Positions 4,713 through 61,182 of a stretch of 64,000 nt of DNA are shown here, one piece after another. A program made the position numbers and the translations under genes. Within the stretch, counting starts at the first letter, position 1, and each line of letters begins with the position of its first letter. Source of the DNA: Escherichia phage GEP001; sequence record PV173775, one strand, 5' to 3'. Below the pieces are notes generated by a model. It ran no database searches. It worked only from the letters and a program-made list of their open reading frames with translations, and was not told the origin of the DNA.

Positions 4713-5078
4713 ATGAACTACATCAATTTTGAACGTAAATATGTTTCTAATGGTATTGCAGGTTCTATTGATACTATCTGCCTTTGGAAACATCAAAATG
4801 GATCAGTATGCGAAATTGAACAGTATATGACTCCTAACTACGTTTATATGCGATTTGAAAATGGCATCACGGTTTCAATCACGAAAGAAGGTTCTTCTTT
4901 TAAAATCGCATTAGATGATGATTTCCGTCAACGCGATTTAGGGACTCATCCTTGCTGGAATGGTGTTAATCGTAAGCTTCTGGTTAAAACTTGGATTCGT
5001 CATATTCTGAGCAACAGAGCTAAACCTGAGCATCTTGAAGCAATCTTTGATGTAGTTCTTAACGAATTTGATATTTAA
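4713..5078 (+). CDS. hypothetical protein, 121 aa (T4 30.7 position)
   Basis: GGAGAA ribosome-binding site; early promoter 4647-4675; GGGGC-TTCG-GCCCC hairpin after stop. Confidence 0.55.
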   Translation: MNYINFERKYVSNGIAGSIDTICLWKHQNGSVCEIEQYMTPNYVYMRFENGITVSITKEGSSFKIALDDDFRQRDLGTHPCWNGVNRKLLVKTWIRHILSNRAKPEHLEAIFDVVLNEFDI

Positions 5079-6258: not shown

Positions 6259-7094
6259 AGCCAACTATTTTAACTGATATTGATGGAGTTTGTTTAAGCT
6301 GGCAATCAGGCCTTCCTTATTTTGCTCAAAAATATAATCTTCCATTAGAACATATTTTAAAAATGATCCAAGATGAGAAATTTATTTCTCCAGGTAAACT
6401 CTTTAATTGTGACGAAGAACTTGGCGTCAAGTTAATTGAAAAATACAATCGTTCAGATTTTATTCGTTACTTGTCTCCGTATAAAGATGCCCTGTGTGTA
6501 ATTAACAAATTAAAAGAAGATTATAATTTTGTAGCTGTTACAGCATTGGGTGATTCTATTGACGCTCTGTTGAATCGTCAATTTAATTTGAATGCTCTTT
6601 TTCCCGGTGCCTTCTCAGAAGTAATGATGTGTGGTCATGATTCTTCAAAAGAAGAGCTGTTCAAAAAGGCAAAAGAGAAATATAACGTAATTTGTTATAT
6701 TGACGATCTCGCTCATCACTGCGATCATGCGAGTGAAATATTAAATGTTCCTGTTTATTGGATGGCTCGAGGAGAGCGTGACAATATTCCAAAAACTGCA
6801 CAGCGAGTTTATACATGGAATGATGTAGAAAATAAGCTTTTTTCGCCGAAGGAAAATAAAGAAAGTTTTGATAGTGAAAAAGCTATAAAAGATTTAATTG
6901 AGAAGATGGTTAAAAACGATTCTTTTCCTTGGAACACTACCTGGAGAACGCCTGGATTTAATCCTTATAATCATCTATATCATCCATATCAGACACATCC
7001 GTTTCAGACATGGAACTATATTAAACCTGGTGGCATAGAGTATTTGTATAATAGACCTACTTGTGGTGATAATATTTTCCAAGGAGCATTCTAA
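6255..7094 (+). CDS. HAD-superfamily hydrolase-like protein, 279 aa (T4 30.2 position)
   Basis: N-terminal ILTDIDGV (HAD motif I, DxDG) and later CYIDDLAHH (Asp pair) in translation. Confidence 0.65.
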   Translation: MKPTILTDIDGVCLSWQSGLPYFAQKYNLPLEHILKMIQDEKFISPGKLFNCDEELGVKLIEKYNRSDFIRYLSPYKDALCVINKLKEDYNFVAVTALGDSIDALLNRQFNLNALFPGAFSEVMMCGHDSSKEELFKKAKEKYNVICYIDDLAHHCDHASEILNVPVYWMARGERDNIPKTAQRVYTWNDVENKLFSPKENKESFDSEKAIKDLIEKMVKNDSFPWNTTWRTPGFNPYNHLYHPYQTHPFQTWNYIKPGGIEYLYNRPTCGDNIFQGAF

Positions 7095-26082: not shown

Positions 26083-27087
26083 ATGTTTAAAAAGTATAGC
26101 AGTCTTGAAAATCATTACAATTCTAAATTCATTGAAAAACTTTATAGTTTAGGATTGACTGGCGGCGAATGGGTAGCTCGCGAAAAGATTCACGGTACAA
26201 ACTTTTCATTGATTATTGAGCGTGATAAAGCAACTTGTGCTAAACGTACTGGACCGATTCTTCCTGCTGAAGATTTCTTTGGGTATGAAATTATTCTAAA
26301 GAATTATACTGATTCCATTAAAGCAGTACAAGATATTATGGAAACTTCAGCAGTTGTATCTTATCAAGTCTTTGGCGAATTCGCTGGACCTGGTATTCAG
26401 AAGAATGTCGATTATGGCGATAAAGATTTTTATGTATTTGACATTATTGTTACTACCGAAAGTGGTGATGTGACTTATGTCGATGATTATATGATGGAAT
26501 CATTCTGTAATACATTTAAATTTAAAATGGCTCCACTTTTAGGTCGCGGTAAATTTGAAGAGCTTATTAAATTGCCAAATGATTTAGATTCTGTCGTTCA
26601 AGATTATAATTTTACAGTAGACCATGCTGGATTAGTTGATGCAAATAAATGCGTTTGGAATGCCGAAGCAAAAGGCGAAGTATTTACCGCTGAAGGTTAT
26701 GTATTGAAACCTTGTTATCCTTCTTGGATGCCTAACGGAAATCGTGTAGCTATTAAATGCAAGAACTCTAAATTTAGTGAAAAGAAAAAGTCTGATAAGC
26801 CTATTAAAGCTAAAGTTGAGCTGTCAGAAGCTGATAATAAATTGCTGGGAATTTTAGCTTGCTACGTTACACTGAACCGAGTAAATAACGTTATTTCTAA
26901 AATTGGCGAAATTGGTCCAAAGGATTTTGGAAAGGTGATGGGACTAACTGTTCAAGATATTTTGGAAGAAACTTCTCGTGAAGGTATTACTTTAACTCAA
27001 GCGGATAATCCTTCTTTGATTAAGAAGGAATTAGTTAAAATGGTACAAGATGTACTTCGTCCGGCTTGGATTGAATTAGTGAGTTAA
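26083..27087 (+). CDS. rnlB: RNA ligase 2
   Basis: 334 aa; nucleotidyltransferase motif I KIHGTN (lysine adenylation site); recognised from memory. Confidence 0.93.
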
Positions 27088-27091
27088 ATAA

Positions 27092-27120
27092 AAAGGGACC
27101 GAAAGGTCCCTTTGTTTTAT
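27092..27120. terminator. bidirectional terminator between rnlB (+) and gene 24 (-)
   Basis: AAAGGGACC-GAAA-GGTCCCTTT followed by GTTTTATT; A-run upstream gives a T-run on the other strand. Confidence 0.75.
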
Positions 27121-28400
27121 TCATCAACGATAATTTTTGGTAGCTTAACACCCAATAAAACAGACAAATCTGAACGACCCGCCATTTTATCCATGTCTCC
27201 ACCATCAATTATTCTTGCTTCTTTTTCATCTTTTGCTACAGTGTAAGGATTTGCAGATAAAGCATATCTAACCAATAAACCGATAGATGGCTGCAAACTT
27301 TCTGGATCAACTACAACTTTAAATGCACCTACATGTTCAGGGTCATCTAAGTCAAGACCTTCTGTATACGGAGCATAGAAAATTGATCCAACAATTTCTT
27401 TTTCGCCAATATTTTCTACCACACCGACGATTACATAATCTAATGGGCTGTTAGTATCGCAATAAAGCGGTAAACCATTAGCTAAAAACCCGTAGGCATT
27501 TTGTGAAAGATATTTATCATCTTCTGGTTTATGTTTTAACCAACCTGATGCAGCAAGAATCGCAGCAGCACGAGCTGAAGCAACACAGAACGTTGCTGTA
27601 TAAGTTGATTCTTTTTGGATATGTGAAACCATTTCACATACCATTCGGTATAATGAACGACCAGCTTCAGGTGCAGATGCATAGCTCAAATCAATGAATC
27701 CAGTGTCAGTAATTCCTGTAACTTTATATCGTTTTGATACTGTAATCAAAGACTGTAGAATATCTTTATTGATTTCATCCGCCATTTCAGTTGCAAGCAA
27801 ATCTTCCAAGAAATTAGGAGCATCGAATCCATTTGCTTCTAAATCTTGTGCTAATTCAACTGTGATGCCAGTTTTAAGTTTACGAGATTTAACTGCGGTT
27901 TGCCATTTATTAATCTGGAATCTAGCATCCGCAATTTCGCTATCAGAGCTTTCAAATTTGCTCGTTGACGCTGCGTCAGAAAATAGACGAACCTTTAAAA
28001 GAACAATTGCAATCTGAAGAGCTAATTCTAAATCGCTTTCTTCAATAGTAGCAAATGGTGTATCTTCTAATACTTTATAGACGATATTATTGTATTTGAA
28101 TAAATCGCCTTTATTGAGAGTTAATTTAGACTCTTCTGTTAATTCTGTGATTTGTTCTCGGTCTACATATCCAGCTTCGCCAGCGTAAGTAGCACCAGTT
28201 TTAAATGTAAATTCGTTATCTGGATTAAGGTATTTGATACCATAAAAAGCAGCAACAGGTTGATTAGTTCTTTGCGTTGCTACAATGTCAGAATATATTA
28301 ATTTAGTGGTAGCGCGAGTCAAAGCAACGAGATTTGGGCGACCGATTGAGTTGCTATTCGTTGTGGTTGATTCGCGCAGAAGTTCGTTGATTTTAGCCAT
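27117..28400 (-). CDS. 24: head vertex protein
   Basis: 427 aa as T4 gp24; late promoter 28429-28436. Confidence 0.92.
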   Translation of the reverse strand: MAKINELLRESTTTNSNSIGRPNLVALTRATTKLIYSDIVATQRTNQPVAAFYGIKYLNPDNEFTFKTGATYAGEAGYVDREQITELTEESKLTLNKGDLFKYNNIVYKVLEDTPFATIEESDLELALQIAIVLLKVRLFSDAASTSKFESSDSEIADARFQINKWQTAVKSRKLKTGITVELAQDLEANGFDAPNFLEDLLATEMADEINKDILQSLITVSKRYKVTGITDTGFIDLSYASAPEAGRSLYRMVCEMVSHIQKESTYTATFCVASARAAAILAASGWLKHKPEDDKYLSQNAYGFLANGLPLYCDTNSPLDYVIVGVVENIGEKEIVGSIFYAPYTEGLDLDDPEHVGAFKVVVDPESLQPSIGLLVRYALSANPYTVAKDEKEARIIDGGDMDKMAGRSDLSVLLGVKLPKIIVDE

Positions 28401-28428
28401 TGCGCTTTCCTTGTTGAGAGTATATGTT

Positions 28429-28436
28429 TATTTATA
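28429..28436 (-). promoter_or_regulatory. late promoter TATAAATA for gene 24
   Basis: TATTTATA on + strand, 29 nt upstream of gene 24 ATG. Confidence 0.65.
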
Positions 28437-28442
28437 AAAGTT

Positions 28443-28472
28443 GTTTACAGCAAGGTTATCACATGTTACTAT
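28443..28472 (+). promoter_or_regulatory. early-type promoter (AAAGTTGTTTACA ... TACTAT) for the 88-aa ORF
   Basis: GTTTAC 28443-28448, TACTAT 28467-28472. Confidence 0.6.
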
Positions 28473-28502
28473 AGACCTATCAAAAACATGAGGAGATTAA
28501 AA

Positions 28503-28769
28503 ATGAACAAGTTAAACTTTATTCGTACTACTCTGTCCGCTCTTGATAAAGACATCAAAGCCCTGGTAGAAAAATATGGTTCCAATCCTAACGGTAATGC
28601 AGTGAATGCCCTAGTTAAGAAATATGAAACCATGGCTTATGCTACTGACTTCTGGTGGAACGGTGAATATTCTACCCATACCAAAGACAAATCTGGTAAC
28701 TGGCTGAAAATCCAAGAAAATCGTATTGACTTCCGTGACATCATCAACCGTCGAGTTAAGATTGCGTAG
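28503..28769 (+). CDS. hypothetical protein, 88 aa, on opposite strand between head genes 24 and 23
   Basis: AGGAG 28491-28495 then ATG 28503 (ORF-track ATG 28488 lies inside the ribosome-binding site); own early promoter 28443-28472; hairpin 28783-28804 downstream. Confidence 0.6.
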   Translation: MNKLNFIRTTLSALDKDIKALVEKYGSNPNGNAVNALVKKYETMAYATDFWWNGEYSTHTKDKSGNWLKIQENRIDFRDIINRRVKIA

Positions 28770-28804
28770 TATAGAAACAAGAATGGGAGACCGAAGTCTC
28801 CCAT
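28770..28804 (-). terminator. terminator downstream of major capsid gene 23
   Basis: 9-bp stem ATGGGAGAC-CGAA-GTCTCCCAT; on - strand followed by TCTTGTTTCT. Confidence 0.7.
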
Positions 28805-28818
28805 AATAAGGTTATATC

Positions 28819-30384
28819 TTAGATACCTTTAACATATACACGGCGGAAGTAAGCGTTTTTACCAAGGCTATTCAGAATAGAAGGCATACCGCTCTGGATG
28901 CGAGAAGCCGGAGCCTGAGCAGCGGATTCTGCAAATGGGTTGATACCGATACCGTAACGAGTTTTGAATCCCATTACTGGTTGGAAGTTCTTCGGATCAG
29001 AACCACGCAGCGGAGTCAGAGCTACATATGGAGCATAGTAAATACCAGCATCCATTTCGTTCGGACCTTTATAACCTACAGTGAAATAATCCTGTTTAGC
29101 ATACTGGTCGATATATACACGGTATTTACCACCCAGAACACCAGCAAATACTGACTTGGTAGTATCAGTGTTAAAGCCGGTAGCCAGACCCTGTGCAGCA
29201 TAAGAAATGCCAGTATCAACTGAAGCCAGAACGTTAACTACGTTACGGGAAGCGATAATGAAGTTACCTTCACCACGACCGGTCTGACGAGCAATTTCAA
29301 CTGCTTCTTTGTCAATCTGGAACAACAGAGCTTTAAAGGATTCACCCGCCCAGCGAGCACCACGAATATCAATCGGATCCTGGAAGTCAAATACACCAGC
29401 TTTAGAACCCGGAGTCAGGGTCATACCAGATTTACCAACCTGAGCTGAGTAGTTAATCCAATCAACAACTTCACGGTTGATTTCCAGCATGATTTCGGTA
29501 GCCAGAATACCAGACAGTTCAGCATCAGCATCCATACCGTGAACAGCGCGGAGGTCTTGTGCTAATTCGATAGAGTAAGCAGCTTTCAGCTGACGAGATT
29601 TAGCTTCGATAACTTGTTTATCGATACGGAAGCCCATTTCATTCCATGGGTTATCGGTAGAACCGTTGAAACCTTCCTGGAGTTCAGCGATAGAAGTAGC
29701 CATACCTTCAGCGATTTCTACCAATGCACCAGCTTCCATTTGTTTCTTAATTTCAGCATCTAATTTAGCTGCATCAGTTGCGCTTGCACTAATTGTTACT
29801 TGAGCAGAAGCCTGCAGATACACAGTACCAGTGTCCTGGAAGAAGTGAGTATAGATATCACCTACTGTGGTTTCTGTGCTAGCAGCCAGAGCCGGGAATT
29901 TCTTAGCAGCGCCCTGACCAGAGAACATTGCATCTGGACCATACATTGGGTGGAATGCTTCTTTAGCGCCGGCAGCGATTGGGTCTTTACCATATACTGC
30001 GCGCAGTGCGAATACCTGACCGGTCGGGCTGTTCATCGGCTGAACACCGCAAATATCGAAAGCAATCAGGTTAGGAATAGCACGACGTACCATACCCATA
30101 ACAGCTGGGCCAATCTGAGTTACTGCGCCAGAAGTCTGACCAGCAGCGATGTTAGTAGCGTTGTAACCGTGGTCACCACCGATTTCAGCTTCTGTTAAGA
30201 AAGAACCGAATGCCTGAGCAATTTTTTCGTCTTTGTACTCTGGAGCTGTCTGGAAATCTTTTTCCTGGTTTTCAAAGATTTTAGCGATAATCGCTTGTTT
30301 GCTATTAGCAATTTCCGGTAAACCTTCACCTTCCAGTAATGGCTTCCATTTGTTCAAAAGTTCAGCTTTAGTTTTGATAGTCAT
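28819..30384 (-). CDS. 23: major capsid protein
   Basis: 521 aa as T4 gp23; MTIKTKAELLNKWKPLLEGEG... recognised. Confidence 0.95.
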   Translation of the reverse strand: MTIKTKAELLNKWKPLLEGEGLPEIANSKQAIIAKIFENQEKDFQTAPEYKDEKIAQAFGSFLTEAEIGGDHGYNATNIAAGQTSGAVTQIGPAVMGMVRRAIPNLIAFDICGVQPMNSPTGQVFALRAVYGKDPIAAGAKEAFHPMYGPDAMFSGQGAAKKFPALAASTETTVGDIYTHFFQDTGTVYLQASAQVTISASATDAAKLDAEIKKQMEAGALVEIAEGMATSIAELQEGFNGSTDNPWNEMGFRIDKQVIEAKSRQLKAAYSIELAQDLRAVHGMDADAELSGILATEIMLEINREVVDWINYSAQVGKSGMTLTPGSKAGVFDFQDPIDIRGARWAGESFKALLFQIDKEAVEIARQTGRGEGNFIIASRNVVNVLASVDTGISYAAQGLATGFNTDTTKSVFAGVLGGKYRVYIDQYAKQDYFTVGYKGPNEMDAGIYYAPYVALTPLRGSDPKNFQPVMGFKTRYGIGINPFAESAAQAPASRIQSGMPSILNSLGKNAYFRRVYVKGI

Positions 30385-61152: not shown

Positions 61153-61182
61153 GTTTACATAGGGTTTTAGTTGTGATACTAT
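61153..61182 (+). promoter_or_regulatory. early-type promoter (CACAAAGTTGTTTACA ... TACTAT)
   Basis: GTTTAC 61153-61158, TACTAT 61177-61182; upstream half identical to the ipI promoter. Confidence 0.65.

Follow-up and report, generated by a model that had tools for sequence, protein, structure and literature searches.

The junction between head genes 24 and 23 of Escherichia phage GEP001 carries a small gene that runs opposite to both of its neighbors, is preceded by an early promoter of the T-even type, and encodes an 88-residue protein that is under strong purifying selection. The window analyzed here is the 64-kb stretch of DNA in which this junction lies. Our best explanation is that of an autonomous, non-essential early accessory gene occupying a swap slot at the 23–24 junction, with a product that binds a host component. 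Taken as a whole, this explanation seems to us an even bet. Its architectural and evolutionary part can be held with high confidence, while its functional part, which makes the product a counter-defense or host-takeover factor, is a tentative reading drawn from context.

Organization of the gene 23–24 junction

The window is classified in the genus Tequatrovirus. Its segment 28350–28870 is 100% identical to phages vB_EcoM-G28, EP01, KIT06 and HZ_ZJUN4, the first of which is classified as Tequatrovirus ecomg28. The junction is flanked on the left by gene 24, encoding the capsid vertex protein (27117–28400, minus strand, ATG at 28400), and on the right by gene 23, encoding the major capsid protein (28819–30384, minus strand). 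A preliminary description made from the sequence alone had placed an opposite-strand unit between them, consisting of a promoter, a ribosome-binding site, an 88-aa open reading frame (ORF) and a hairpin. Each of these elements was found in place, and the plus-strand orientation of the ORF, its early-type promoter and its Shine-Dalgarno sequence were confirmed.

The promoter, of the T-even early (sigma-70) type, extends over 28443–28472 of the plus strand and is composed of GTTTAC(A) at 28443–28448, a 17-nt spacer, a TG at 28465–28466, and TACTAT at 28467–28472. The Shine-Dalgarno sequence GAGGAG (28490–28495) lies 7 nt 5′ of the ATG of the ORF, a member of the PHROG 6003 family that occupies 28503–28769 of the plus strand (ATG at 28503, TAG at 28767–28769). 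An in-frame ATG further upstream, at 28488, falls within the Shine-Dalgarno sequence, and all members of the family begin at M-N/T-K. The hairpin, with a 9-bp stem and a 4-nt loop, spans 28783–28804; on the minus strand it is the intrinsic terminator of gene 23, and it would also be the 3′ structure of a plus-strand transcript of the ORF.

The late promoter of gene 24, which was absent from the preliminary list of elements, is located at 28429–28436 on the minus strand, 29–36 nt upstream of the gene 24 ATG. It reads TATAAATA (TATTTATA on the plus strand), which we take to be a late promoter on the strength of the established T4 late consensus TATAAATA. This element is kept in all six of the aligned genomes, including that of a phage with an empty junction. 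The early −35 element is only 7 nt away from it, such that the two promoters stand back to back.

The early promoter

A generic sigma-70 scan was uninformative, since its result was at chance level (10 sites versus 9.3 expected). The pattern GTTTAC-N17-19-TAnnnT occurs seven times in the 64-kb window, compared to 2.66 times expected; all seven sites are on the plus strand, and in all seven a TG precedes the −10 element. Six of the seven begin 57–66 nt 5′ of a plus-strand ORF, and for the seventh, at 61153, no ORF of at least 75 aa is found at that distance. The sites other than 28443, located at 841, 4255, 4647, 13212, 60787 and 61153, share the form GTTTAC...TGnTAnnAT. Together with 28443, these six sites constitute a coherent promoter class within the window.

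The same promoter also matches a published consensus. TTTACW-N17-TAYWAT has been described as the early-promoter consensus of T4 and PST in PeSL (promoter-early stem-loop) elements (Comeau et al. 2014, PMC4122927). Four matches to it are present in the window, compared to 0.31 expected, and none of 100 shuffled sequences reaches four. One of the four is 28444–28472, which has an AT-rich upstream region. The −35 element GTTTACA and the 17-nt spacing are retained in IME08 (Dhakavirus), VR26 (Gaprivervirus) and JS09 (Mosigvirus), where the sequence of the spacer has diverged; the −10 element is CATAAT in VR26 and TACTAT in JS09. Preservation of the hexamers in the face of a diverged spacer is the pattern expected for a functional promoter. 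The early type initially assigned to this promoter thus fits the published T-even consensus, and is shared with three other genera.

The corresponding site in T4 is occupied by the homing endonuclease gene segD, and the promoter of the 88-aa ORF can be aligned with the region 5′ of T4 segD. This region contains TTTACA-N17-TGaTATTAT upstream of segD (NC_000866, 102500–109700; positions 4754–4782 of this locus, L005, minus strand), which is the only match to the consensus in 7.2 kb (0.04 expected) and lies on the segD strand. A 2010 review of T4 mobile elements (PMC2988022) considered that no segD-specific promoter was identifiable and assumed vanishingly low transcript levels. In a later study, T4 segD was classed as "early RNA / middle protein", and the SegD protein was detected, rising through infection (Wolfram-Schauerte et al. 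2022, PMC9697503, supplementary files 4–6). The aligned site suggests a promoter for T4 segD. The early segD RNA could also be read-through from the upstream rnlB and 24.2 promoters, early or middle. By homology with the segD slot, we infer that the 88-aa ORF is probably expressed early.

The hairpin and gene 23 termination

The terminator scan calls the 28783–28804 hairpin on the minus strand only, where it has a C(UUCG)G tetraloop and the U/T-rich tail TCTTGTTTCT. The plus strand folds equally well, at −16.4 kcal/mol, and the folding z-score is about −3.8 on either strand; the plus-strand tail, AUAAUAAGG, is not U-rich. A search of Rfam gave no match in the region. A homologous hairpin follows gene 23 in T4, JS09, VR26 and IME08, as well as in Tequatroviruses that do not carry the ORF, such as DalCa. 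Its equivalent in VR26 has a T-run on both strands, the plus strand included. A terminator after gene 23 has been predicted in six of six T4-like genomes (Nolan et al. 2006, PMC1524935). The U-tail and UUCG loop on the minus strand, combined with the presence of the hairpin where there is no ORF, indicate that it is primarily the terminator of gene 23 and not a property of the ORF. The ORF cassette thus appears to borrow its 3′ end from gene 23, and on the plus strand the hairpin may either terminate the transcript or merely stabilize it. The unit had been described as self-contained, with a terminator of its own; the position of the hairpin stands, and its ownership passes to gene 23, whose conserved terminator is shared with the ORF.

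Another perfect 9-bp hairpin, with T-runs on both strands, is located at 27092–27113, between the convergent genes rnlB (26083–27087, plus strand) and 24 (minus strand). This is a bidirectional terminator, a designation that it also carries in the annotations of G28 and DalCa. The rnlB gene itself, encoding RNA ligase 2, is annotated as two coding sequences in JS09 (positions 86–1085 of locus L003) and in DalCa (positions 1–488 of locus L007), which suggests frameshifts or sequencing errors in these two records.

States of the junction among T-even phages

To survey the junction, a 1-kb query across the 23–24 junction was compared with roughly 500 Tequatrovirus-level records. Most Tequatroviruses have an empty junction, spanned in 686 bp compared to 1021 bp here; the empty junction of DalCa measures 83 bp and contains only the late promoter and the hairpin. 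In T4-type genomes the junction (span of 1412 bp) holds segD without the ORF, and segD is on the same strand as the ORF is here; the preliminary description had correctly placed T4 segD in this slot. The ORF without segD is found in the window, JS98 (Dhakavirus), VR26 (Gaprivervirus) and JS09 (Mosigvirus). In each of these it lies between genes 23 and 24 and runs opposite to them, as does the syntenic RB69 copy. Both genes are present in IME08-type Dhakaviruses. In IME08 (NC_014260; positions 1868–2809 of locus L006), a segD-like GIY-YIG gene begins 3 nt past the stop codon of the ORF and ends before the shared hairpin, and the two look like one early operon. The IME08-type segD allele is present in about 40 phage records.

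With tblastn, the family was detected in 237 phage records, as a single copy in each, and was not found in T4. Among the roughly 500 Tequatrovirus-level records, only eight, representing about six distinct phages, match the junction of the window at ≥99%. The comparison of the 23–24 region across T-even genomes that the preliminary description called for thus shows that the ORF is not universal, being absent from T4, and that its presence or absence is a true polymorphism among close relatives, most Tequatroviruses being empty at 83 bp. The proposed moron-like behavior holds with respect to the type of unit. It does not extend to sporadic novelty, as the ORF is a standard resident in Dhakavirus, Gaprivervirus and Mosigvirus.

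Some copies are inactivated. In RB69 (NC_004928; positions 6292–6532 of locus L012), the gene is frameshifted into RB69ORF188c (41 aa) and RB69ORF189c (29 aa) while its promoter is intact; either RB69 has a pseudogene here, or the 2003 record contains a sequencing error. A decayed copy is also present in a further Tequatrovirus, 310Ecol104PP (OR062946; locus L013). Here, a 10-bp deletion (window positions 28633–28642) is accompanied, 63 bp downstream (about 28706), by a 10-bp tandem duplication, GAAAATCCAA, and the product is truncated to 64 aa.

Two other interpretations of these junctions were considered and rejected. For IME08 and many other records, tblastn aligned only residues 1–72 ("82% covered"), which might be read as a C-terminal truncation in the segD-carrying Dhakaviruses, but the IME08 ORF (1868–2134) is intact to residue 88. 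A deletion between TATA repeats was considered as the origin of the empty junction, and the sequences do not fit it cleanly. Gene 24 is in tandem (24a, 24b) in the Dhakavirus and Gaprivervirus genomes (VR26, IME08, JS98) and single in Tequatrovirus and Mosigvirus; the ORF occurs in both situations.

Origin of the tract in this lineage

The window was scored at informative sites against DalCa (Tequatrovirus) and JS98 (Dhakavirus). All sites are of the Tequatrovirus type up to 28399, all are of the Dhakavirus type from 28400 to about 28815, and the Tequatrovirus type resumes from about 28850. The intergenic tract (28401–28818) is therefore Dhakavirus-like, with Tequatrovirus backbone on both sides. 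The switch points fall in strings that are common to the two lineages, CATTGCGCTTTCCTT at the start of gene 24 and TTAGATACCTTTAACATATAC at the end of gene 23, and the identities at these boundaries are 15–21 nt long. Such clean switches indicate that the intergenic region was replaced as a block, comprising the late promoter, the early promoter, the ORF and the terminator. The tract was probably imported by recombination at the identities that mark the ends of genes 24 and 23. Between the window and JS98, dS of the ORF is 0.16; thus, the donor would have been a relative of JS98 and not JS98 itself.

That the ends of the swapped tract coincide exactly with the gene borders is also in keeping with a role of the ORF as a companion or landing site of segD. 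The ORF would then supply the promoter, and perhaps a target or immunity context, and would have spread as a side effect of the gene conversion that accompanies homing. The IME08 arrangement, in which segD closely follows the ORF and precedes the same hairpin, implies co-transcription; this segD allele recurs in the records mentioned above, and T4 has retained the promoter with segD replacing the ORF. However, most carriers have the ORF without segD (the window, JS98, VR26, JS09), and T4 has segD without the ORF. There is no endonuclease in the window, and the distant homologs described below have no endonuclease neighbor. We consider such a companion role quite improbable, and return to the reading of the ORF as an accessory gene in its own right.

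The 88-residue protein

The dN/dS ratio of the ORF is between 0.03 and 0.13 (0.03 versus JS98, 0.07 versus IME08, 0.11 versus VR26), and the ORF is a real gene under strong purifying selection. Two minus-strand ORFs of 54 aa and 55 aa inside the interval were dismissed as non-coding, because the substitution pattern fits the plus-strand frame. The product has a mass of 10.3 kDa and a pI of 9.6, is hydrophilic, and contains no cysteine. A model by AlphaFold2, calculated with a 16-sequence alignment, has a mean pLDDT of 94 and an alpha-alpha-beta-beta-alpha topology, with predicted helices at residues 3–25, 31–48 and 77–87 and strands at residues 52–61 and 67–71. A family member in BFVD, predicted independently, superposes on it with a TM-score of 0.90. 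Residues M1, K3, F6, G31, N32, N35 and Q71 are invariant in the family, and position 51 is aromatic.

The protein matches PHROG 6003, a family of unknown function, with an E-value of 5.8e-50, residues 1–88 aligning with positions 1–88 of the 90 in the profile. Members of this family include JS98 gp173 (EpJS98_gp173), VR26 gp250, RB69ORF188c together with RB69ORF189c, and JS09_0270. The sequence identity is 99% to the JS98 homolog, 63% to VR26 and 34% to JS09, and the record of VR26 gp250 notes a similarity to VR7 gp190. Hundreds of genome annotations already list the gene as hypothetical, and a search of the literature by gene name or accession found the family named in no paper.

The absence of a recognizable domain, and of GIY-YIG features in particular, was noted at the outset; Pfam and NCBIfam agree, without a significant match. 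Searches of Pfam, NCBIfam and PADLOC returned only sub-threshold noise, including DUF5380 (13 bits, cut-off 29) and a T9SS protease model (12.9 bits, cut-off 600), both discarded. A sequence-profile search of the PDB gave no match below an E-value of 0.026, and neither the sequence nor the fold yielded a match that indicates a function. The protein is not similar to the segD products of IME08 or T4, and has no sequence or fold similarity to characterized anti-defense or defense-associated families.

The basic character of the protein raises the question of whether it binds nucleic acid, for example to modulate the transcription or translation of host or phage early in infection, instead of inhibiting another protein by direct contact. 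The pI is 9.6 in most members, K3, K24 and K63 are conserved, the NGN loop and Q71 are invariant, and the expression inferred for the gene is early, all of which would suit a small basic nucleic-acid binder. However, the fold does not match a helix-turn-helix, ribbon-helix-helix, OB or other nucleic-acid-binding fold, one subfamily member has a pI of 8.0, and the net charge is only +5. An activity of this kind is unlikely.

A small basic protein encoded next to head genes could also be packaged and injected together with the DNA, like the T4 internal (IP) proteins, and the sequence does contain an L-x-E motif (LVE, residues 21–23). The IP proteins are marked by a capsid-targeting N-terminus and a gp21 cleavage site, a combination that the protein does not show. 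Their capsid-targeting sequence is MKTYQEFIAE, which the N-terminus MNKLNFIRTTL does not resemble. E23 is not invariant, LVE is inside a structured helix, and residues 3–25 form an integral helix of a confidently folded domain. The promoter is early only, and we regard a packaged factor as extremely improbable.

Distant homologs

An HMM search of 1.84 billion representative proteins yielded only 10 matches. Eight are short (41–160 aa), and six of these are full-length (84–90 aa); family clusters of 41–51 aa (P0018, P0019 and P0025) represent shorter versions, counted here with the inactivated copies. The remaining two, P0022 (1347 aa, E-value of 1e-15) and P0024 (3916 aa, E-value of 9e-8), score through 9–11 weak repeated stretches and were judged to be repeat-summed artefacts; P0022 is rich in Ig-like repeats. 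One 90-aa member, P0017, from a 173-kb contig, is labeled "NADPH-dependent curcumin reductase CurA" by JGI, an evident misannotation.

Besides T4-like phages, the family spans three unrelated phage backgrounds, each time beside a promoter-like site and a hairpin. Homologs are present in the Vequintavirinae phage ABPH49 and a related contig, amid long runs of small early-type genes; in a siphovirus-like contig, just past GpJ-type tail-fibre genes; and in a 64-kb IMG/VR contig, where an apparent endolysin ORF, identified by eye, lies about 1.8 kb upstream. In two of the distant loci (L010 and L011), a sigma-70-like site is located 50–58 nt 5′ of the ATG and a hairpin lies immediately past the stop codon. 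These promoter-like sites are individually at chance level, and their positions are consistent. L011 has an additional stem-loop 5′ of the promoter, as in a PeSL.

The settings of these homologs bear on why the gene resides where it does in T-even phages. Its stable residence at one site in three genera could reflect a housekeeping role tied to that site. Alternatively, the unit might regulate the head junction, either by antisense or divergent transcription through the slot or by means of a protein that tunes the expression or assembly of gp23 and gp24. The fixed site between 23 and 24 in four Tevenvirinae genera, the proximity of the early −35 to the gene 24 late promoter, and the hairpin common to the ORF and gene 23 are all compatible with such a regulator. 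Yet heads are made by most Tequatroviruses with the empty 83-bp junction and by T4 with segD, the RB69 copy is inactivated, and the homologs in non-T4 phages sit away from head genes. Furthermore, selection acts on the protein sequence, beyond transcription alone, and an early timing is mismatched with a late role in assembly. A regulator of the head junction is distinctly unlikely.

Proposed function

According to the preferred explanation, the sigma-70 RNA polymerase of the host would transcribe the unit during the opening minutes of infection, ahead of the convergent late transcripts. The product, predicted to be a compact, basic and soluble 10-kDa protein of alpha-alpha-beta-beta-alpha topology without a catalytic signature, would exert its effect stoichiometrically, through binding to a host component, most likely a strain-specific defense factor or a host-takeover target. 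The gene would then be useful on some hosts and dispensable on others, including laboratory hosts. Such conditional usefulness fits the patchy distribution, horizontal replacement and recurrent inactivation of the gene. The anti-defense or host-interaction role had been proposed from the outset, and the homology, fold and literature searches gave nothing that bears on it. A screen of early proteins of AV110 took only homologs of T4 early proteins (bioRxiv 10.64898/2026.09.14.751387), a choice that would have excluded this ORF, as T4 has no homolog of it.

A broader version of this proposal is speculative, and we put it forward as a doubtful possibility. The promoter, ORF and hairpin may form a portable early cassette that is passed between unrelated virulent phages of enterobacteria (four T-even genera, rV5-like phages, a siphovirus and the 64-kb phage) and encodes an inhibitor, with a new fold, of a strain-specific defense or takeover target. 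The 23–24 junction would be a slot dedicated to exchange, and its conserved early promoter would drive segD as well, which would explain why no promoter has been recognized for T4 segD.

Should the protein prove to act in counter-defense or host takeover, the T-even toolkit would gain a new fold and a new target, and the near-identical Tequatroviruses whose junction is empty or holds segD or the ORF would be a natural isogenic test set. Whatever its function, the conserved block of head genes holds a defined exchange slot, and it appears that a whole regulatory region, with late promoter, early promoter, cargo and terminator, was swapped between genera at identities of 15–21 nt.

Comparison with known systems

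The unit is a PeSL- or moron-like early accessory cassette, and this type of module is already known. Its protein is a clear member of PHROG 6003, and has in common with the other members full-length homology and the syntenic position between genes 23 and 24. The copy in the window differs from these in its surroundings, which are those of a Tequatrovirus, a background in which the gene is rare. T4 segD has the same position and orientation and an aligned upstream promoter, and the two genes lie side by side within one unit in IME08-type phages. In contrast, the two proteins are unrelated, and the ORF has no nuclease domain or mobility function of its own.

The morons of lambdoid phages, a concept of Hendrix and Juhala, are promoter-gene-terminator units inserted between two genes of a late operon. 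The likeness to these is one of architecture only: the unit is inserted between late-operon genes, is putatively transcribed independently, and is present or absent among relatives. Unlike the lambdoid hosts of morons, the phage studied here is virulent, without prophage expression; furthermore, its unit runs opposite to the operon and takes its terminator from a neighboring gene.

Among the kinds of element already described, the PeSL modules of T4-type phages come closest (Arbiol et al. 2010, PMC2839356; Comeau et al. 2014, PMC4122927). They combine an early promoter with an ORF and a stem-loop, mark the sites of indels and exchanges, and are rarer inside the structural block according to the authors (PMC4122927). 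The unit in the window resembles them in its small ORF of unknown function, in its TTTACW-N17-TAYWAT early promoter, in its Shine-Dalgarno sequence and start codon, and in its stem-loop. Like them, it is tied to indels or replacements between close relatives (empty, segD, ORF, or ORF with segD) and has been exchanged between phages. It differs from them in the placement of its stem-loop, which follows the ORF and also serves the convergent gene 23 as terminator; the sequence 5′ of the promoter contains no stem-loop, and is taken up by the late promoter and start codon of gene 24. It is also located within the conserved structural block and not in a hyperplastic region, and the endpoints of its exchange fall where gene 24 starts and gene 23 ends, in contrast to the mini-circle model, in which they would fall in the PeSL motifs.
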